A stretch of DNA of 23,622 nt from IMG/VR virus record IMGVR_UViG_2537561575_000012; one strand, written 5' to 3'. The notes under the pieces are model-generated. The model worked only from the letters and a program-made list of their open reading frames with translations. It was not told the origin of the DNA and did no database searches. The DNA comes from a virus (Duplodnaviria > Heunggongvirae > Uroviricota > Caudoviricetes). Of the stretch, positions 7,511 through 23,622 are shown piece by piece; the stretch's first letter is position 1; the number at the start of each line of letters is the position of its first letter. The position numbers and the translations under genes were made by a program.

Positions 7511-8425
7511 ATGCCATACCAATTGGTAGAGCTTAGCCCCGTAGCTAACGATCTTGAACAGTTAGGAACCAAAGAGAAGTTTTGGTTCTATTTCTCCGAT
7601 GACACTGTAAATTTGCAGTTGTTTAAGTACTCTAGGCCAGGTACTGGCGAGCATTGGTCTGAAAAGTGTGCTGCTGAGTTATGTCATTTGCTTAACATTC
7701 CACATGCTAGCTATGATTTGGCGCGATACAATGGTCGATTCGGTGTGGTGACTCAGAATATCATTCCATCTGGTTTCCGGATGGTAATGGGAAATGAAGT
7801 GCTTCACAGTTCGACATTCGATTATCCTGGGCCTTTACAAGCCGGGGAAAAGCCGGTAAGGGTCAGAGAACACACTGTCACAAGGGTCTTGGGTTGTTTA
7901 GATAGGGAATCTATCAAGCCTCCTCCGAGTGTATATGATCTAACCGGGCTAAATGCAGCAGATGTATTTTGTGGATATTTGATGCTCGATGCACTTGTGA
8001 GTAATCAAGATCGCCACCATGAAAATTGGGCAATCATGCTTAACAATGAAACTGGTGAGCAGTTTTTGTGTCCAACATACGATCATGCCGCTAGTTTAGG
8101 AAGGGAGATGTTAGATGATGAGCGTAACGAACGGCTTAATACTAAAGATAAAAATCGACAAATCCCATGTTTTGTAAGAAAAGCTCGCTCTGAGCTATTC
8201 AAAGCAAAAACTGATAAAAAGCCCTTGCTGACTGTTGAAGCATTTCAACATGCAGTTGAAGGGAGAGTTGCCGCTCGCGACCATTGGTTAGGTAAGTTGA
8301 GCGTTTTAACAGAAGATTCCATTACAGATGTGTTTAACCAAGTGCCTTCATCGTGTATATCCGACAGTGCACGTAGATTTGCAACGTTAATGGTAATGGA
8401 AAATCGCAGAAGGTTACTAGAATGA
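7511..8425 (+). CDS. HipA-like Ser/Thr kinase, C-terminal catalytic domain only (HipT-like)
   Basis: 304 aa; G-x-x-E-K loop LGTKEKF (aa 18-24), catalytic-loop-like SNQDRHHENWA (aa 164-174) and YDHAAS (aa 190-195) parallel HipA motifs; no HipA N-terminal domain; AGGGA before the ATG; stop overlaps the next start (ATGA at 8422-8425). Confidence 0.7.
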   Translation: MPYQLVELSPVANDLEQLGTKEKFWFYFSDDTVNLQLFKYSRPGTGEHWSEKCAAELCHLLNIPHASYDLARYNGRFGVVTQNIIPSGFRMVMGNEVLHSSTFDYPGPLQAGEKPVRVREHTVTRVLGCLDRESIKPPPSVYDLTGLNAADVFCGYLMLDALVSNQDRHHENWAIMLNNETGEQFLCPTYDHAASLGREMLDDERNERLNTKDKNRQIPCFVRKARSELFKAKTDKKPLLTVEAFQHAVEGRVAARDHWLGKLSVLTEDSITDVFNQVPSSCISDSARRFATLMVMENRRRLLE

Positions 8426-9162
8426 CTAATACAAACTCCGTTTACGTCGCATGGCAGGCACCAGATACCAGAGACTGGCATGTTGTTGGTAACTTGCAAG
8501 AGCGCAAATCGGGGTATGTTTTCAGGTATACCAAAGGTGCTCTTAAATCTTCTAAATTTACAAAGTTTAGCGGCATGAGTGATGTTCGTGAAACTTATGT
8601 ATCGGAAGAATTGTTTCCTCTTTTTAAAAATCGCCTTTTATCACCGAGACGTCCAGAGTATCCGAGTTTCATTAAATGGCTTGGATTTGAAGAAGATAAG
8701 GTAAATCCTATCGATATTCTTGCTCGCTCGGGAGGCTTACGAAGCACTGATCAGCTGCAGATTTTCAAAAAAATTGATTTTGATTCTGATGGTAACTTTG
8801 AGCATTTTTTCTTCTTACATGGACTTGGTTACTTGAATAGCTTAGCTAATGCTCGTGTATCTGAATTGAAACCGGGGCAAATTTTGCGTCTTTGCTTGGA
8901 TCTTCAAAATGAATACGATGGGGATGCTGTTGTCGTTCGTGCAGATAAACCAGCTGAAATCGTTGGTTACTGCCCTAGGTATTTAAGTAATGACATCAAG
9001 AAGATGTTATTGGATGATCCAAAATCAATCACTTTAACGGTCGAAAAGATTAGCGATGATGCTCCTCATAACTATCGGTTATTATGTAAATTATCAGGGG
9101 TACTAAGCCAAGCCTGTCAATCGACGCTGATTCCTCAAGATGAGTTTGAACCTATTGAGTAA
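8422..9162 (+). CDS. HipS/HipA-N-like domain fused to a C-terminal HIRAN domain
   Basis: 246 aa. N-terminal ~120 aa (VVGNL...YVFRY...LFPLFKNRLLSP...NPIDILARSGGL) resemble the HipA N-subdomain and HipS (LFPFFDGLIPEG...). C-terminal aa ~125-215 (ILRLCLDLQNEYDGDAVVVRADKPAEIVGYCPRYLSNDIKKMLLD) fit the HIRAN pattern. Confidence 0.6.
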   Translation: MTNTNSVYVAWQAPDTRDWHVVGNLQERKSGYVFRYTKGALKSSKFTKFSGMSDVRETYVSEELFPLFKNRLLSPRRPEYPSFIKWLGFEEDKVNPIDILARSGGLRSTDQLQIFKKIDFDSDGNFEHFFFLHGLGYLNSLANARVSELKPGQILRLCLDLQNEYDGDAVVVRADKPAEIVGYCPRYLSNDIKKMLLDDPKSITLTVEKISDDAPHNYRLLCKLSGVLSQACQSTLIPQDEFEPIE

Positions 9163-18953: not shown

Positions 18954-19847
18954 CCTTTCGCAGTTGCCTGCACCGCAGATTGTGGATGTGCCGGACTTTG
19001 AGACGCTGCTTGCCGAACGCAAGGCAGAATTTGTGGCGCTTCATCCGAAAGAGGAGCAGGAAGAGGTCACCCGCGCGCGGAAACTGAAATCTAACCCGCC
19101 ACTAAATTGTTGCAGGAGAATGCTTACCGTGAGTTGCTTCTGCGCCAGCGCATTAACGAAGCCGCGCAGGCGGTGATGGTGGCTTACGCGATGGGCGGCG
19201 ATCTTGACCAGCTCGCTGCCAACTACAACGTGACACGCCTGACGGTGACGCCTGCTGATAATGATGCTGTGCCGCCCGTTGCAGCTGTGATGGAAAGCGA
19301 TGAAGCGTTACGCCTGCGTGTGCCTGCAGCCTTTGAAGGGCTTTCTGTTGCGGGGCCAACTGCAGCTTATGAATTTCATGCCCGAAGCGCCGACGGTCGG
19401 GTGGCGGATGCCAGTGCAACCAGCCCGGCACCTGCAGAGGTGGTGCTGACTGTCCTTAGCCGCGAAGGCGATGGAACTGCAGAAAAAGACCTGCTGGACG
19501 TGGTGGAAAAAGCTCTGAACAGTGAGAACGTCCGCCCGGTGGCTGACCGTCTTACGGTTCGCAGCGCAGAAATCATCCCGTATCGCGTGGAAGCCACCAT
19601 TTTTCTCTATCCTGGACCGGAAGCAGAGCCGGTAATGGCAGCGGCAAAAGCCAGCCTGCAGAAGTACATCGCCAGTCAGACGCGTCTTGGTCGGGATATT
19701 CGCCGTAGCGCCATCTTTGCCGCCCTGCATGTTGAGGGGGTGCAGCGTGTGGAGCTGGCTTCTCCTCTGGCGGATGTGGTCCTGAACAAAACACAGGCGG
19801 CATCATGTACGCAGTGGAGCGTAACCAACGGAGGAACGGATGAATAG
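18940..19847 (+). pseudogene. Baseplate assembly protein J (P2 gpJ-like) interrupted by a frameshift near 19099-19107
   Basis: N-terminal part (ATG 18940, MAVIDLSQLPAPQIV...) runs in one frame to a stop at 19174-19176; the remainder (LLQENAYRELLLRQRINEAA...) is in another frame from about 19104 to 19847. The span is 908 nt, which is 3n+2. Junction lies in ccgccactaaattgttg. Confidence 0.55.
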
Positions 19848-20445
19848 TCTGCTGCCACCGGGTTCAACACCACTGGAGCGCCGACTGGCGCAAACCTGCA
19901 GCGGGATTTCTGATCTGCAGGTGCCGCTTCGTGACTTGTGGAATCCGGCAACCTGTCCGGTCAGTTTCCTGCCTTATCTCGCCTGGGCGTTCTCTGTGGA
20001 TCGCTGGGACGAGGGCTGGACAGAAAGCGTCAAGCGCCAGGTGGTGAAGGATGCTTTTTATATTCATCAGCATAAAGGGACCACCAGTGCCGTGCGGCGG
20101 GTGGTGGAGCCGTTCGGATTCCTGATCCGCATTATTGAGTGGTGGCAGACCGGAGAAACACCGGGCACGTTTCGCCTGGATATCGGCGTGCAGGACCAGG
20201 GCATCACTGAAGATACCTATCTGGAACTTGAGCGACTGATAAGCGATGCCAAACCATGTAGCCGCCACATGATCGGCATGTCCATCAATCTGCAGACCAG
20301 CGGCCCGCATTGGGTGGGAGCCGCCAGCTATCTTGGCGAAGAAATCACGATCTATCCGTATATCAACGAAACGATTATTTCCGGTGGCACCGCGCATGAA
20401 GGCGGGGCGGTCCATGTTATTGATACAATGAGAGTGAATCCATGA
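19840..20445 (+). CDS. Baseplate/tail protein I (P2 gpI-like)
   Basis: 201 aa; overlaps the J stop and the H start (ATGA at 20442-20445). Confidence 0.7.
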   Translation: MNSLLPPGSTPLERRLAQTCSGISDLQVPLRDLWNPATCPVSFLPYLAWAFSVDRWDEGWTESVKRQVVKDAFYIHQHKGTTSAVRRVVEPFGFLIRIIEWWQTGETPGTFRLDIGVQDQGITEDTYLELERLISDAKPCSRHMIGMSINLQTSGPHWVGAASYLGEEITIYPYINETIISGGTAHEGGAVHVIDTMRVNP

Positions 20446-21677
20446 GCACAAAATTTTATACCCTGCTGACGGATATTGGCGCGGCGAAACTTGCCAGCGC
20501 CGCCGCGCTCGGTGTGCCGCTAAAAATTACCCATATGGCGGTGGGCGATGGCGGTGGAGTATTGCCAACGCCGGACGCAAAGCAGACGGCACTGGTAAAT
20601 GAGAAACGCCGGGCTGCGCTGAATATGCTTTATATCGACCCGCAGAACAGCAGCCAGATTATTGCCGAACAGGTGATCCCTGAAAACGAGGGCGGTTGGT
20701 GGATACGTGAAGTGGGCTTGTTTGATGAGTCCGGGGCATTGATTGCCGTGGGCAACTGCCCGGAAAGCTATAAGCCGCAACTGGCTGAAGGTAGCGGGCG
20801 CACTCAGACCGTGCGCATGGTGCTGATTACCAGCAGCACGGACAATATCACCCTGAAAATCGACCCTGCTGTAGTGCTGGCAACCCGCAAGTATGTGGAT
20901 GACAAGGCACTGGAGCTGAAGGTGTACGCGGATGATCAGATGGCAAAACATCTTGCCGCACCGGACCCGCATTCACAGTACGCGCCAAAAGCCAGCCCGA
21001 CATTTACCGGAACCCCCAAAGCGCCAACGCCAGCGGCGGGGAATAATACCACGCAGGTTGCGACCACTGCGTTTGTACAGGCGGCACTGACGGCCCTTAT
21101 TAATGGTGCGCCAGCCACGCTGGACACGCTGAAAGAAATAGCCGCAGCCATTAACAATGATCCGAATTTCAGTACCACCATTAACAATGCGCTGGCACTA
21201 AAAGCACCGTTGTCGAGTCCGGCACTCACCGGAACGCCAACAGCCCCCACGGCGGCGCAGTCGGTCAACAATACACAGATTGCCACTACGGCTTTTGTGA
21301 AATCGGCGATTGCAGGAATGGTGGGTTCTGCACCTGCTGCACTGGATACACTGAACGAACTGGCGGCGGCACTGGGGAATGATCCGAACTTTGCCACGAC
21401 AATGCTTAATGCGCTGGCAGGTAAACAACCGCTGGACAATACGCTTACCAATTTGAGTGGAAAGGATGTAGCTGGTCTTCTCACATACCTTGGTTTGGGA
21501 GAAGGCTCTGCATTACCTGTTGGTGTCCCTGTTCCGTGGCCTTCAGCCACTCCGCCGACAGGCTGGCTGAAATGCAACGGTGCGGCTTTTTCTGCCGAAG
21601 AATACCCGGAACTGGCAAAGGCTTACCCGACAAATAAATTACCTGATTTACGCGGTGAGTTTATTCGTCACCTGTAA
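20442..21677 (+). CDS. Tail fibre protein H, constant region plus shared segment, in its current orientation
   Basis: 411 aa; conserved N-terminus MSTKFYTLLTDIGAAKLA; two internal fibre repeats; the last 57 aa before ...GEFIR are encoded by the left inverted repeat; the ORF stops 2 codons after the repeat (HL-stop). Confidence 0.75.
   Translation: MSTKFYTLLTDIGAAKLASAAALGVPLKITHMAVGDGGGVLPTPDAKQTALVNEKRRAALNMLYIDPQNSSQIIAEQVIPENEGGWWIREVGLFDESGALIAVGNCPESYKPQLAEGSGRTQTVRMVLITSSTDNITLKIDPAVVLATRKYVDDKALELKVYADDQMAKHLAAPDPHSQYAPKASPTFTGTPKAPTPAAGNNTTQVATTAFVQAALTALINGAPATLDTLKEIAAAINNDPNFSTTINNALALKAPLSSPALTGTPTAPTAAQSVNNTQIATTAFVKSAIAGMVGSAPAALDTLNELAAALGNDPNFATTMLNALAGKQPLDNTLTNLSGKDVAGLLTYLGLGEGSALPVGVPVPWPSATPPTGWLKCNGAAFSAEEYPELAKAYPTNKLPDLRGEFIRHL
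20991..21434 (+). repeat. Two tandem ~74-aa tail-fibre repeat units within H
   Basis: aa 184-257 and 258-331 share P.FTGTP.APT.....N.TQ.ATTAFV..A......AP..LDTL.E.AAA..NDPNF.TT..NALA.K.PL, a phage tail-fibre repeat pattern. Confidence 0.5.
21478..21503. other. Candidate recombinase crossover site (hix/gix/pix-like), left
   Basis: TTCTCACATACC-TT-GGTTTGGGAGAA: two 12-bp half-sites in imperfect dyad (10/12) around a 2-bp core, similar to hixL as I recall it (TTCTTGAAAACC AA GGTTTTTGATAA); at the outer end of the left inverted repeat. Confidence 0.45.
21490..21668. repeat. Left arm of a ~179-bp inverted repeat
   Basis: Reverse complement of 23183-23361; I saw three synonymous mismatches in spot checks; both arms encode the same 57 aa (GEGSALPVGVPVPWPSATPPTGWLKCNGAAFSAEEYPELAKAYPTNKLPDLRGEFIR). 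Confidence 0.75.
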
Positions 21678-21871
21678 ATATCCCCCTGCCGATATCTTTC
21701 AGCAATACCAATTATTGTGTTGTTGCATCGTACGATAATGCACGGTCAGGTGTGTCAACAATGGTTAGTTTTGCAGCATTGCCTGTTTCACCATCGCAAT
21801 TTTCCCTGATGTCATCTGTGACTGAGCAAGGAATAAATCCTTTTGCTTACTGGATTGCTTTTGGAGATTGA
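21659..21871 (+). pseudogene. Possible frameshifted remnant of the plus-orientation fibre variable segment
   Basis: A 70-codon open frame (no stops from 21659 to TGA 21869-21871) shifted by one nucleotide from the H frame; it ends 3 nt before the Tfa start (TGA TAA ATG). Only internal ATG (21761) or GTG (21752) starts, so it is absent from the ORF track. Confidence 0.3.
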
Positions 21872-21874
21872 TAA

Positions 21875-22294
21875 ATGGACAGATACTTCTATTCACAAAA
21901 AGAAAATGGTTTTTTTACCGATTTAAATAAAGCACCTTCAGATGCTGTTGAGATAAACACGGATGAATGGCTGTTACTACTGGATGGTCAGGATAATGGC
22001 ATGAAAATAGTCAGCAATCAGGAGGGATATCCGGTTTTGACAGAGCAACCACCTTTATCAAAAGAAAACCTTATTGCATTGGTGGAGTTGAAAAAAAGAA
22101 AACTTATTAATGAAGCCAACGAGCACATGAACAGCAGACAATGGCCAGGTAAAGCGGCTATTGGTCGTCTGAAAGGTGAGGAACTGGCGCAATATAATTT
22201 ATGGCTGGATTATCTGGACGCACTGGAACTGGTTGATCCCTCCAGTGCTCCAGATATTGAATGGCCTACGCCTCCGGCAGTTCAGGCCAGATGA
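21875..22294 (+). CDS. Tail fibre assembly protein (Tfa/U-like), plus orientation
   Basis: 139 aa; C-terminus ...DYLDALELVDPSSAPDIEWPTPP parallels the C-terminus of the convergent minus-strand paralogue; 3' ends overlap by 29 nt. Confidence 0.65.
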   Translation: MDRYFYSQKENGFFTDLNKAPSDAVEINTDEWLLLLDGQDNGMKIVSNQEGYPVLTEQPPLSKENLIALVELKKRKLINEANEHMNSRQWPGKAAIGRLKGEELAQYNLWLDYLDALELVDPSSAPDIEWPTPPAVQAR

Positions 22295-22868
22295 CATCCG
22301 GTGCGGTGCTGGTATCTGTTGCCGTCACCGCGTCAATGTAATCCAGCGCAGCGTTAAGTCGGGCGGTTTCTGCCTGCGTCAGATTCCGTCCGGCCTGTAA
22401 TTTCAGTTGAATCAGACTGATAGAAGCCATTGCTGTATCAATCAGCGACTGGCGCTGTGCTTCTGCTGCATCTACTACGGCGCTATGCTGTGCCTCGGTA
22501 TCCGTCACCCATTTCTCACCATCCCATTTATCGTATGGCGTTAACGGGGCGATAGTGGTTGTATTATCAGGGTAATCACCCGGTGCTGTGATTTCTTTTG
22601 ATTCTCCTGTTTCGGTGCTAAAGACAATTTCACCGCGATGGTCTGGTACATATTCCCATGAGTTAAAATCTGCAGAGCGGCAGATTGCATAACCAGCTTT
22701 GTAGGTGCCTGGAGCATCTAAACAGGAATATGCCGGAATGCCGACACCAACAGCAAGATATTCAGTTGAAGCTGAAATATACTCCCGACTCATGACGTCA
22801 AAGTTATAAACAGTAATTTCTCCTGCCATAGTGGCAATTAATTCACTGTTTAATTCTGCGTTATTCAT
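22266..22868 (-). CDS. Tail fibre assembly protein (Tfa'/U'-like), minus orientation
   Basis: 200 aa; C-terminus ...DYIDAVTATDTSTAPDVIWPELP; its start overlaps the stop of the alternative fibre segment (TAATG). Confidence 0.7.
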   Translation of the reverse strand: MNNAELNSELIATMAGEITVYNFDVMSREYISASTEYLAVGVGIPAYSCLDAPGTYKAGYAICRSADFNSWEYVPDHRGEIVFSTETGESKEITAPGDYPDNTTTIAPLTPYDKWDGEKWVTDTEAQHSAVVDAAEAQRQSLIDTAMASISLIQLKLQAGRNLTQAETARLNAALDYIDAVTATDTSTAPDVIWPELPEA

Positions 22869-23361
22869 TATGCAGCCCTCACAATATAGTTAAAAGCGAC
22901 ATTTCGTGGGCGTGTTTCATTCGCACCTGCATGTTTAGTCGTTGCCGCAACAACACCACCCTCTGTAATAGCCGGGTTGGGAATTGGGTAATTATCGAAG
23001 TCAATGGCCGGAGACAGGGGCGTGATTTGTTTTAAAATCGTGGTGCCTGTAAAACTTTCCAGAGTCTGGTCGTTAGTTCGTGAAGTCCAGATTCCCCAAT
23101 AGTGGTTATGACTGACAATCGCACCGTCCTGAAGCGTTAATAATCCCCTTCCGTTATCCCCTCCACGTCCGTCATCCCAGCCACGAATAAACTCACCGCG
23201 TAAATCAGGCAATTTATTTGTCGGGTAAGCCTTTGCCAGTTCCGGGTATTCTTCAGCAGAAAAAGCCGCACCGTTGCATTTCAGCCAGCCTGTCGGCGGG
23301 GTGGCTGAAGGCCACGGAACAGGGACACCAACAGGTAATGCAGAGCCTTCTCCCAAACCAA
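22868..23361 (-). CDS. Alternative tail-fibre C-terminal segment (Hv'), fused to H only after inversion
   Basis: Minus-strand ORF 22868..23356; begins inside the right inverted repeat with the same 57 aa as the end of H, continues ~104 aa further (GWDDGRGG...NVAFNYIVRAA), then stop; no credible independent start. Confidence 0.65.
23183..23361. repeat. Right arm of the ~179-bp inverted repeat
   Basis: Reverse complement of 21490-21668 with a few synonymous differences. Confidence 0.75.
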
Positions 23362-23373
23362 CCTTTTAGAAAA
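23348..23373. other. Candidate recombinase crossover site (hix/gix/pix-like), right
   Basis: TTCTCCCAAACC-AA-CCTTTTAGAAAA at the outer end of the right repeat; shares the half-site GGTTTGGGAGAA (as reverse complement) with the left site. Confidence 0.45.
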
Positions 23374-23427
23374 TGCAGTTATTCGGCTCAGATGGCATGA
23401 TCCCGGATTTTTACAGGGTTATTTCTC

Positions 23428-23622
23428 ATGCTTATTGGCTATGTACGTGTGTCAACAAATGACCAGAACACAGATCTACAACGTAATGCGCTGAACTGTG
23501 CAGGATGTGAGCTGATTTTTGAAGACAAGATAAGCGGTACAAAGTCCGACAGACCAGGACTGAAAAAGCTGCTCAGGACATTATCGGCAGGTGACACGCT
23601 GGTGGTCTGGAAACTGGACCGA
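23428..23622 (+). CDS. Serine DNA invertase (Pin/Gin/Hin/Cin family), N-terminal fragment running off the window
   Basis: MLIGYVRVSTNDQNTDLQRNAL...DRPGL...GDTLVVWKLDR matches the N-terminal catalytic domain of Pin/Gin invertases as I recall them, including the catalytic serine in VRVSTNDQ; truncated by the window end. Confidence 0.85.
   Translation, partial: MLIGYVRVSTNDQNTDLQRNALNCAGCELIFEDKISGTKSDRPGLKKLLRTLSAGDTLVVWKLDR

Follow-up and report, generated by a model that had tools for sequence, protein, structure and literature searches.

An e14-type invertible tail-fibre switch behind gene H of a P2-like Escherichia coli prophage, deposited with one chimeric arm

The locus behind tail-fibre gene H in a P2-like prophage of E. 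coli P0302308.5 is a standard invertible tail-fibre switch of the Pin/Gin family (e14 P-segment type). In the deposited draft contig, one of its two arms is broken by a chimeric join, and this join is slightly more likely to be an assembly error than real DNA. This type of switch is already known, and the truncation of H reflects ordinary biology either way, whether it is an artefact or a lesion.

The sequence analyzed (referred to as the window; 23,622 nucleotides) is from contig APZH01000079.1 of assembly GCA_000357825.2, and the end of the window is the end of the contig. It displayed the P2 gene order and hallmarks, with replication protein A, portal, terminase, P2 capsid and the baseplate genes V-W-J-I followed by H, and was 96-98% identical to annotated P2-family prophages. 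Window positions 1-21480 are covered to at least 80% in approximately 760 complete genomes. The crossover sites and the repeat and segment associated with them were as follows.

21478-21503: left 26-bp crossover site, TTCTCACATACCTTGGTTTGGGAGAA (TTCTCACATACC TT GGTTTGGGAGAA), with the central TT at 21490-91
23348-23373: right 26-bp crossover site, TTCTCCCAAACC AA CCTTTTAGAAAA, with the central AA at 23360-61
21490-21668 and 23183-23361: inverted repeat, 179 nt, 98% complementary
21491-23360: invertible segment, 1,870 bp between the site centres, from simulated inversion and from both orientations in relatives

The reverse complement of the right site is TTTTCTAAAAGGTTGGTTTGGGAGAA, and the inner half-site TTGGTTTGGGAGAAGG is the same as the repeat published for the e14 P segment (PMC12529663). 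A degenerate 26-mer pattern search identified exactly these two sites (0 expected by chance), and their exact outer ends are the positions 21478 and 23373 between which a preliminary description of this DNA had placed an invertible tail-fibre segment. A third or cryptic site at the join, or a Min-like system, was ruled out, as only two sites were found even with three mismatches allowed; the join contained no site-like sequence, and its two partners have only one T in common. The arms of the inverted repeat are mismatched at three positions (21551/23300, 21596/23255 and 21641/23210).

The features of gene H and the plus-strand arm in the deposited sequence were as follows.

20442-21677, plus strand: tail-fibre gene H, 411 aa, ending RGEFIR-H-L-stop (open reading frame list)
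21505-21668, plus strand: ectopic piece, collar-type arm nt 1-164 at the start position of the gp53-like arm (alignments)
21668-21669: chimeric join of collar arm nt 164 to gp53-like arm nt 145, with 1 nt (T) shared
21659-21868, plus strand: remnant frame of 70 codons (stop at 21869-71), the last three quarters of the gp53-like tip domain

Residues 1-351 of H were the same as in the intact H (469 aa) of E. coli 13TMH22. The constant part of the gene ends at the crossover centre (21490) and is followed by 60 codons of collar-type arm and then H-L-stop; the 411-aa product and the stop two codons past the left repeat, both reported previously, are present in the sequence. Analysis of Pfam domains revealed a Phage_tail_fib N-terminal domain at residues 1-150 and a Collar domain at residues 361-408, the latter complete despite the truncation. 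Positions 19557-21668 were identical (2112/2112) to the 513-aa H of sibling loci L022 and L023, through the site and into the collar arm. When the plus arm was aligned with intact arms, 176 nt from the prophage's own collar arm were found in place of the first 156 nt, a gain of 20 nt that shifts the frame by +20 nt. The ectopic piece and the site core together make up the left arm of the inverted repeat (179 nt); the chimeric join thus accounts for both the repeat and the 411-aa H.

From position 21669 the remnant arm was 99% identical to intact arms. The remnant frame is preceded in its own frame by TGA at 21656-58, is offset from H by -1 (equivalently +2) and ends 3 nt before the 139-aa chaperone gene, in agreement with the earlier observation that the plus side carries only a stop-free 70-codon frame, one nucleotide out of register with H and directly before a chaperone gene. 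Pfam analysis of this frame, whose alignment to fibre C-termini had been proposed as a check, revealed a real tip remnant matching positions 21-83 of 84 in Gp53-like_C (E = 1e-6). The suggestion that one arm had decayed requires revision: the change is not gradual, but a sharp collar/gp53-like chimera with a 1-nt overlap that is private to one draft assembly.

The remaining parts of the switch were all intact up to the end of the contig.

21875-22294, plus strand: chaperone Tfa of the gp53-like arm, 139 aa, intact, Caudo_TAP (E = 1e-24)
22266-22868, minus strand: TfaE-like chaperone of the collar-type arm, 200 aa, intact, Caudo_TAP (E = 9e-33)
22868-23361, minus strand: StfE-like collar-type arm (open reading frame 22868-23356), 162 aa, in frame with the right site
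23428-23622, plus strand: PinE-type serine invertase, first 65 codons, Resolvase N-terminal domain (E = 1e-20)

The 139-aa Tfa was identical at 138/139 residues to that of 13TMH22, and the exact protein is present on at least 24 other contigs. The 200-aa chaperone matched 13TMH22 at 200/200 residues and K-12 TfaE at 174/200. The collar-type arm contains a Collar domain (E = 8e-16) and was identical at 160/162 residues to the arms of strains a7 and 13TMH22. These results confirmed that the minus strand carries an intact alternative C-terminus in frame with the right repeat, followed by its own chaperone. Only 65 codons of the invertase gene are present because the contig ends. The fragment begins MLIGYVRVSTNDQ, contains Ser9 and was identical to PinE of strain a7 (65/65) and nearly so to K-12 PinE (64/65). 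Positions 23428-23622 share approximately 96% nucleotide identity with K-12 pinE, and from this identity a Fis-dependent enhancer is predicted in the 5' part of the gene.

The Pfam domains of the locus fit a two-arm design, in which two alternative fibre 3' ends are each followed by their own chaperone: a Gp53-like_C remnant with Caudo_TAP (139 aa) on the plus strand, and Collar with Caudo_TAP (200 aa) on the minus strand. With two sites, an adjacent invertase and this domain content, an invertase-controlled fibre switch, as originally proposed, was upheld. A PinE-type serine invertase would recombine the two inverted 26-bp sites and flip the 1.87-kb segment, attaching the constant part of H to either of two C-terminal tips. 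The gp53-like tip, followed by the 139-aa chaperone, would give a 469-aa H, as in relatives, and the collar-type tip, followed by the 200-aa chaperone, would give a 513-aa H. Inversion of the deposited segment was simulated; H stayed in frame as a 513-aa product identical at 511/513 residues to an intact relative. The deposited sequence thus yields a complete fibre in one orientation only, consistent with the preliminary account of a segment captured in a non-productive orientation.

The deposited contig records one orientation only, whereas the 13TMH22 prophage and the sibling loci record both. In 13TMH22 the P2-like prophage encodes a 513-aa H on the chromosome and a 469-aa H on a circular 36-kb copy, and five near-identical sibling loci have intact arms with an H of 469 or 513 aa; an intact gp53 arm is present in sibling contig APZB01000013. 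Among complete genomes, the H-collar join was found in 856 and the H-gp53 join in 59. Inversion has been demonstrated by sequencing in P2-like prophages (PMC4272514) and experimentally in e14 (PMC12529663), and probably also takes place in P0302308.5 itself.

The chimeric join was absent from 5,426 complete E. coli genomes and from GTDB representatives, IMG/VR and JGI metagenomes examined by DNA pattern scans. Exact-protein look-ups placed the 411-aa and 59-aa products on this contig alone. For the ectopic collar piece, the best match among complete genomes was 98.3%, and an exact match was found in sibling draft loci only. An internal deletion of a longer arm carrying both collar and gp53-like tip was rejected, as the two parts never occur within approximately 600 nt on one strand in complete E. 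coli genomes. Other private changes were identified on the contig. Gene J contains a patch (19053-19092) with nine substitutions and a 1-nt deletion within 35 nt and is frameshifted; no donor for the patch was found, with nothing matching better than 91% anywhere, and no nearby repeat could have templated it. Two further changes, at 21683 and 23160, are both A>C in a C-rich context. The idea that inversion acts as an on/off switch is not indicated in any evolved form, since the join is private and five sibling loci have intact arms. The choice therefore lies between mis-assembly and a de novo lesion.

We consider the chances about even that the chimeric join is an error of one draft assembly. 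The strain carries two near-identical copies of the region, and both orientations are present in cultures. An artefact is favoured by the absence of the join from all databases searched and from the five sibling loci, and by L021, a locus whose H matches one named for isolate P0302308.4, and which shares the flanks of the window, with H (469 aa) and J both intact. The private patch in J and the two private A>C changes point in the same direction, as does the right flank (pinE), which is of another prophage type; among the complete genomes inspected, it was found at 99% identity or more only in e14-like prophages. Across sibling assemblies the four flanks (P2 H, P2 pin-sheath, e14 YmfQ-fibre and pinE-LEM3) are paired differently, a pattern expected from an assembler unable to separate the two copies of a repeat, and another draft assembly contains an N-containing scrambled join in the same segment. 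If the join is an artefact, P0302308.5 would have a normal two-state host-range switch. Against an artefact, an overlap of 1 nt is unusual for de Bruijn or overlap assemblers and requires a chimeric molecule or forced gap closure. Both partners lie within one 2-kb locus, a position also compatible with genuine local illegitimate recombination between oppositely oriented copies, and the rest of the contig is clean, with only two gaps in a 17.4-kb alignment to a relative.

The alternative, to which we assign a somewhat less than even chance, is that the chimeric arm exists in the isolate as a very recent lesion of P0302308.5 that gave rise to an accidental on/off switch. Two copies of the element with oppositely oriented segments may have undergone one illegitimate crossover, or the left site may have been broken and then repaired with the other arm as template; either route would join H, the site and collar nt 1-164 to the gp53 arm from nt 145 to its end. 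A join between sequences with no shared k-mer is hard for an assembler to make. The ectopic piece corresponds exactly to the collar arm of the prophage itself (100% identical to siblings), and its three differences from the right arm of the contig show that it is not a duplicated consensus. The frameshift in baseplate gene J would fit a prophage under relaxed selection, and inversion would restore a full fibre from the parts that remain. Such a decaying prophage would have one productive orientation (513-aa H) and another giving a tip-less 411-aa H. However, neither the near-identical sibling loci nor any database searched yielded a second example of the join, the segment is flanked by sequences of two prophage types, and the change in J, with its dense substitutions and no donor, resembles poor consensus rather than mutation.

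It is unlikely that the join is not only real but was made at the switch, and that the flank pairings seen in sibling assemblies are real Pin-mediated exchanges between two prophages. By one such route, an invertase break at the left site, copying of the opposite arm and illegitimate sealing could have produced an on/off switch in one clone; the P2-left/e14-right and e14-left/P2-right pairings could represent large programmed chromosomal inversions via the shared segment.

A one-base sequencing error that masks an in-frame hybrid fibre of approximately 476 aa, in which a partial gp53-like tip follows a collar domain, is very improbable. The remnant is open from 21659 and the H stop lies at 21675-77, and one additional nucleotide within 21659-21674 would fuse the two frames; the candidates are an extra T in TTT (21660-62), in TT (21664-65) or at CGT|CACC, after which H would read into the remnant. 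This is the sole arithmetically possible form of the homopolymer idea. The CCCCC run at 21683-21687, suspected earlier of being such an error, is an A>C substitution without a change in length; relatives read ATCACCCTG at this position, and because the run lies downstream of the in-frame TAA, an indel there could not rescue H. Where the left repeat arm (21490-21668) enters the interval 21659-21674, every base agrees with the right arm and with the collar arms of the siblings, and there is thus no hint of a missing base. The fused Gp53-like_C domain would lack its first 20 positions, a collar N-terminus within approximately 600 nt upstream of the gp53 module was found in no complete E. coli genome, and the seven database homologues of the 70-aa frame all lack a Collar domain. 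A programmed -1 frameshift joining H to the 70-codon frame was rejected, as inspection of the overlap at 21659-21677 (GAG TTT ATT CGT CAC CTG TAA) revealed no slippery X XXY YYZ heptamer.

We regard as extremely unlikely a functional truncated state, whether as a phase switch selected to turn fibre completion on and off, as the product of programmed frameshifting or as a truncated or orphan fibre fragment with which the host blocks receptors in defence: chimeric fibre fragments made by inversion in e14 (StfE2) are reported to block T2 adsorption (PMC12529663) and the 411-aa H keeps its complete Collar domain, but the allele is unique with no conservation, the overlap offers no slippery heptamer and the lesion is a frame-breaking illegitimate join.

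Taken together, these data call for caution with invertible, multi-copy prophage fibre segments, which are assembled unreliably from short reads. Such contigs commonly break at a crossover site, the pairing of their flanks is arbitrary and unusual joins arise; an evolved on/off fibre switch should therefore not be read from one draft contig. If the join is real, it would provide a small natural example of a two-state host-range switch degrading to one state, and of the origin of a long inverted repeat at a Din-type site.

The closest known system is the invertible P segment of the E. coli K-12 element e14 with its invertase PinE, reportedly described by Plasterk and van de Putte in 1985. The window shares with it the inner half-site, the invertase N-terminus (64/65 residues) and the two-arm design, in which gp53-like StfP with TfaP and collar StfE with TfaE are arranged so that the chaperone genes converge and overlap; the segments are of similar size (1,797 bp in e14 and 1,870 bp here). 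In contrast to e14, which has a short StfP N-terminus, the constant part here is a P2-type gene H, the gp53-like arm and its chaperone represent a different allele, and the deposited sequence has one broken arm. Because of the ectopic piece, the inverted repeat extends over 179 nt, compared with 16 nt in e14.

The same switch is found in P2-like E. coli prophages (13TMH22, phage pro483 and EPEC E2348/69), with a backbone 96-98% identical over 21 kb, 99.5% identity across 21668-23361 and both orientations recorded. These relatives differ in having intact arms (H of 469 or 513 aa), a perfect repeat core of only 15 nt and, in place of the pinE-type allele of the window, a 188-aa P2-associated invertase allele with the tail sheath gene behind it.

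The G segment of Mu with Gin and the C segment of P1 with Cin follow the same logic, a likeness drawn from published descriptions rather than sequence: the constant fibre N-terminus lies outside the segment, two C-termini with their own chaperones lie inside it and the invertase gene is adjacent. In P1, long inverted repeats form part of the arms. The fibre tips of Mu and P1 belong to families different from those in the window. Min of p15B, a three-repeat P2-like prophage of EPEC and the shufflons likewise rearrange fibre or pilus tips through site-specific inversion; these multiple-inversion systems need at least three crossover sites, whereas the window has two.

The elements listed in the preliminary description, namely the inverted repeat, the 411-aa fibre H, the minus-strand tip with its chaperone and the 70-codon frame, were all recovered, and the ends it gave for the segment coincided with the outer boundaries of a pair of 26-bp sites. 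The features were located as follows:

20442-21677, plus strand: H, 411 aa, with its stop 2 codons past the left repeat arm
21478-21503: left 26-bp site, TTCTCACATACC-TT-GGTTTGGGAGAA
21490-21668 and 23183-23361: arms of the inverted repeat, 179 nt, 98% complementary
21659-21868, plus strand: 70-codon open frame, offset -1 relative to H, ending 3 nt before a 139-aa ORF
minus strand: collar-type arm ORF of 162 aa, sharing the frame of the right site; a 200-aa ORF follows it
23348-23373: right 26-bp site, reverse complement TTTTCTAAAAGG-TT-GGTTTGGGAGAA
from 23428: ORF with a Resolvase N-terminal domain (Pfam)

A search of the window with a degenerate 26-mer pattern identified these two sites only (chance expectation, none), ruling out a multiple-inversion system. 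The invertase gene was represented by 195 nt, after which the contig ends. Analysis with Pfam revealed a P2-type fibre N-terminal domain (residues 1-150) and a Collar domain (361-408) in H, a Collar domain in the minus-strand arm, and Caudo_TAP fibre chaperones in both the 139-aa and 200-aa ORFs (Tfa139 and Tfa200). The 70-codon frame matched positions 21-83 of the 84 in Gp53-like_C and had database homologues, bearing out its suspected homology to fibre tips.

Window positions 1-21480 were covered to at least 80% at 96-98% identity in approximately 760 of 5,426 complete E. coli genomes, and outside the segment the window is, judged by its sequence, a P2-family prophage. Between their replication and portal genes, P2-like prophages have a variable cargo spot, which in relatives holds SIR2, KAP NTPase, TIR or AAA ATPase genes. 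In the window it was occupied by two ORFs (7511-9162) that match the two genes of PDC-M03, a candidate defence system in PADLOC (E = 2e-122 and 7e-93): an ORF of 304 aa with a weak HipA-like kinase match and an ORF of 246 aa with a HIRAN domain.

Every relative inspected carried one gp53-like and one collar-type arm, with differing alleles. In E. coli 13TMH22, the chromosomal H had the collar tip and a length of 513 aa, and an orphan gp53-like arm of 133 aa adjoined the invertase; on the circular 36-kb 13TMH22 record the segment was flipped and H was 469 aa with the gp53-like tip. The P2-like prophage thus appears in two records of this strain (L001 and L003), with the fibre segment in opposite orientations on the chromosome and on the circular record (36,172 bp, labelled plasmid), which is probably an excised phage genome caught by the assembly. 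Among complete genomes, the H-collar join was found in 856, which may include switch-less prophages, and the H-gp53 join in 59. The H protein cluster also contained many 'partial' members of 343-349 aa, from contigs ending near the crossover site, a signature of cultures holding both orientations at sequencing. Inversion has been demonstrated experimentally in P2-like prophages (PMC4272514) and in e14 (PMC12529663). From what is known of the family and from these relatives, the invertase would pair the two sites, cut their central dinucleotides and rotate the strands, joining the constant part of H to one or other tip, and Fis at a putative enhancer inside the invertase gene would aid the reaction. 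The chaperone gene directly downstream of each tip would serve the folding of that tip.

Alignment of the plus arm with the intact arms of relatives revealed a chimera. The window was identical to the intact arms up to the site core GGTTTGGGAGAAG, past which 164 nt of collar-type arm stood in for nt 1-144 of the gp53-like arm; the latter resumed at TCACCTGTAAAT. Between common landmarks the window contained 176 nt and the intact arm 156 nt, and the frame is therefore shifted by +20 nt. The two join partners (21668/21669) have a single T in common. The perfect repeat in relatives is 15 nt only, and the 179-nt repeat arose because the collar piece was swapped into the plus arm. Compared with 13TMH22, Tfa139 was identical at 138/139 residues, Tfa200 at 200/200 and the collar arm at 160/162, and when 21491-23360 was flipped in silico H became 513 aa, with 511/513 residues identical to the 13TMH22 chromosomal H. 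On these alignments, all components other than the chimeric plus arm are intact. A further E. coli contig (L010 1-274, GCA_034496305.1) differed upstream and agreed exactly with the gp53-like tip module once past the start of GTAAATATC; since this switch point lies 6 nt from the join position, the comparison suggests a natural module boundary there in gp53-like tips.

A simple sequencing error is unlikely to account for the truncation. The CCCCC run, previously suspected of a homopolymer error, reflects an A>C substitution (relatives read ATCACCCTG, of equal length) and is not the cause, as it sits after the in-frame TAA. Continuation of H in frame, also raised earlier, would need one extra base within 21659-21674, and there was no sign of a missing base, because these positions agree fully with both the other arm and the collar arms of sibling loci. 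No slippery heptamer for programmed frameshifting was present in 21659-21674.

The window forms the final 23.6 kb of contig APZH01000079.1 in the draft assembly of E. coli P0302308.5 (GCA_000357825.2). A 221-nt probe across the join was not covered to even 80% by any of the 5,426 complete E. coli genomes, and no exact match to the join was found in GTDB species representatives, IMG/VR or JGI metagenomes. By exact-protein look-up, the window contig was the only carrier of the 411-aa H and of a 59-aa protein called from the remnant. Near-identical loci were gathered by exact Tfa139 protein, several from the same sequencing series. L021 (266-kb contig; H named for isolate P0302308.4) had both flanks as in the window, with intact H (469 aa) and J (302 aa). 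In L018, L019, L022 and L023 the P2 arrangement was normal and the segment lay the other way round (H, 513 aa), and L026 paired an e14-type left flank with P2-type invertase and sheath. Across H, site and collar arm, window 19557-21668 was identical to L022 and L023 at 2112/2112 positions, and the ectopic piece is therefore the window prophage's own collar arm; 21668-23361 was 99.7% identical to the same loci.

We put the chance that the join is an assembly artefact at about even. None of the near-identical sibling loci shares it. Gene J of this contig carries a private patch at 19053-19092, where 35 nt contain 9 substitutions plus a 1-nt deletion; the resulting frameshift leaves ORFs of 91 aa and 246 aa, while J is intact (302 aa) in sibling loci and all relatives. 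Matches to the patch reached at most 91% in the 5,426 complete genomes, GTDB and IMG/VR gave no exact one, and the patch is probably low-quality consensus rather than mutation. The remaining private differences of the segment from all sibling loci were A>C at 21683 and 23160 only, each extending a C run on the plus strand (ATCACCC to ATCCCCC; TCCACTCC to TCCCCTCC) and reading on the opposite strand as T>G following a G run. Illumina miscalls commonly take this form. Among complete genomes inspected, the right flank (23362-23622) matched at 99% or more only in e14-like prophages (YmfQ ... pinE-LEM-3), the left flank being P2-type, and sibling assemblies paired the four flanks three ways (P2-P2, P2-e14, e14-P2). 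Such flanks and pairings are expected if the 1.9-kb two-copy repeat could not be resolved; they reflect either an assembly that failed to separate the two copies of the segment or genuine exchange between the two prophages. In many draft assemblies H was broken close to the crossover site, at about residue 349, and another draft (L011 183-960, GCA_949281695.1) had an N-containing scrambled join in the same segment, showing that the segment is prone to scrambled assembly. There, the gp53-like arm met the middle of the 200-aa chaperone gene, and in one called protein residues 1-28 of the 139-aa chaperone were fused to the gp53-like arm.

A real lesion, which we hold to fall somewhat short of an even chance, would better fit a 1-nt-overlap join, which is not usual assembler output, and join partners that are both local, as in illegitimate recombination between oppositely oriented copies. 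The ectopic piece and the contig's right arm also differ at 3 positions, so the piece is not copied consensus, and the rest of the contig is clean. A genuine repair event associated with the switch, combined with genuine Pin-mediated exchange of P2-like with e14-like copies, is improbable. Were the join real, the plus orientation would yield an H of 411 aa without a distal tip and an unused chaperone and the minus orientation the full 513-aa fibre, and inversion would therefore amount to an on/off switch that arose by accident; as J is broken too, a prophage with the deposited join would be defective in any case.

The sole unusual element is a private join of doubtful reality. The Invertase fragment was identical to PinE at 64/65 residues in K-12 and 65/65 in strain a7. 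Both window sites have as their inner half TTGGTTTGGGAGAAGG, the inverted repeat published for the e14 P segment (PMC12529663). Given this likeness to PinE, the e14 half-site, the domain content and the P2-family backbone, the locus can be assigned to the known Pin/e14-type invertible fibre segment, behind a P2-type gene H, a system whose arms, sites and inversion have already been described and which is annotated in hundreds of genomes.
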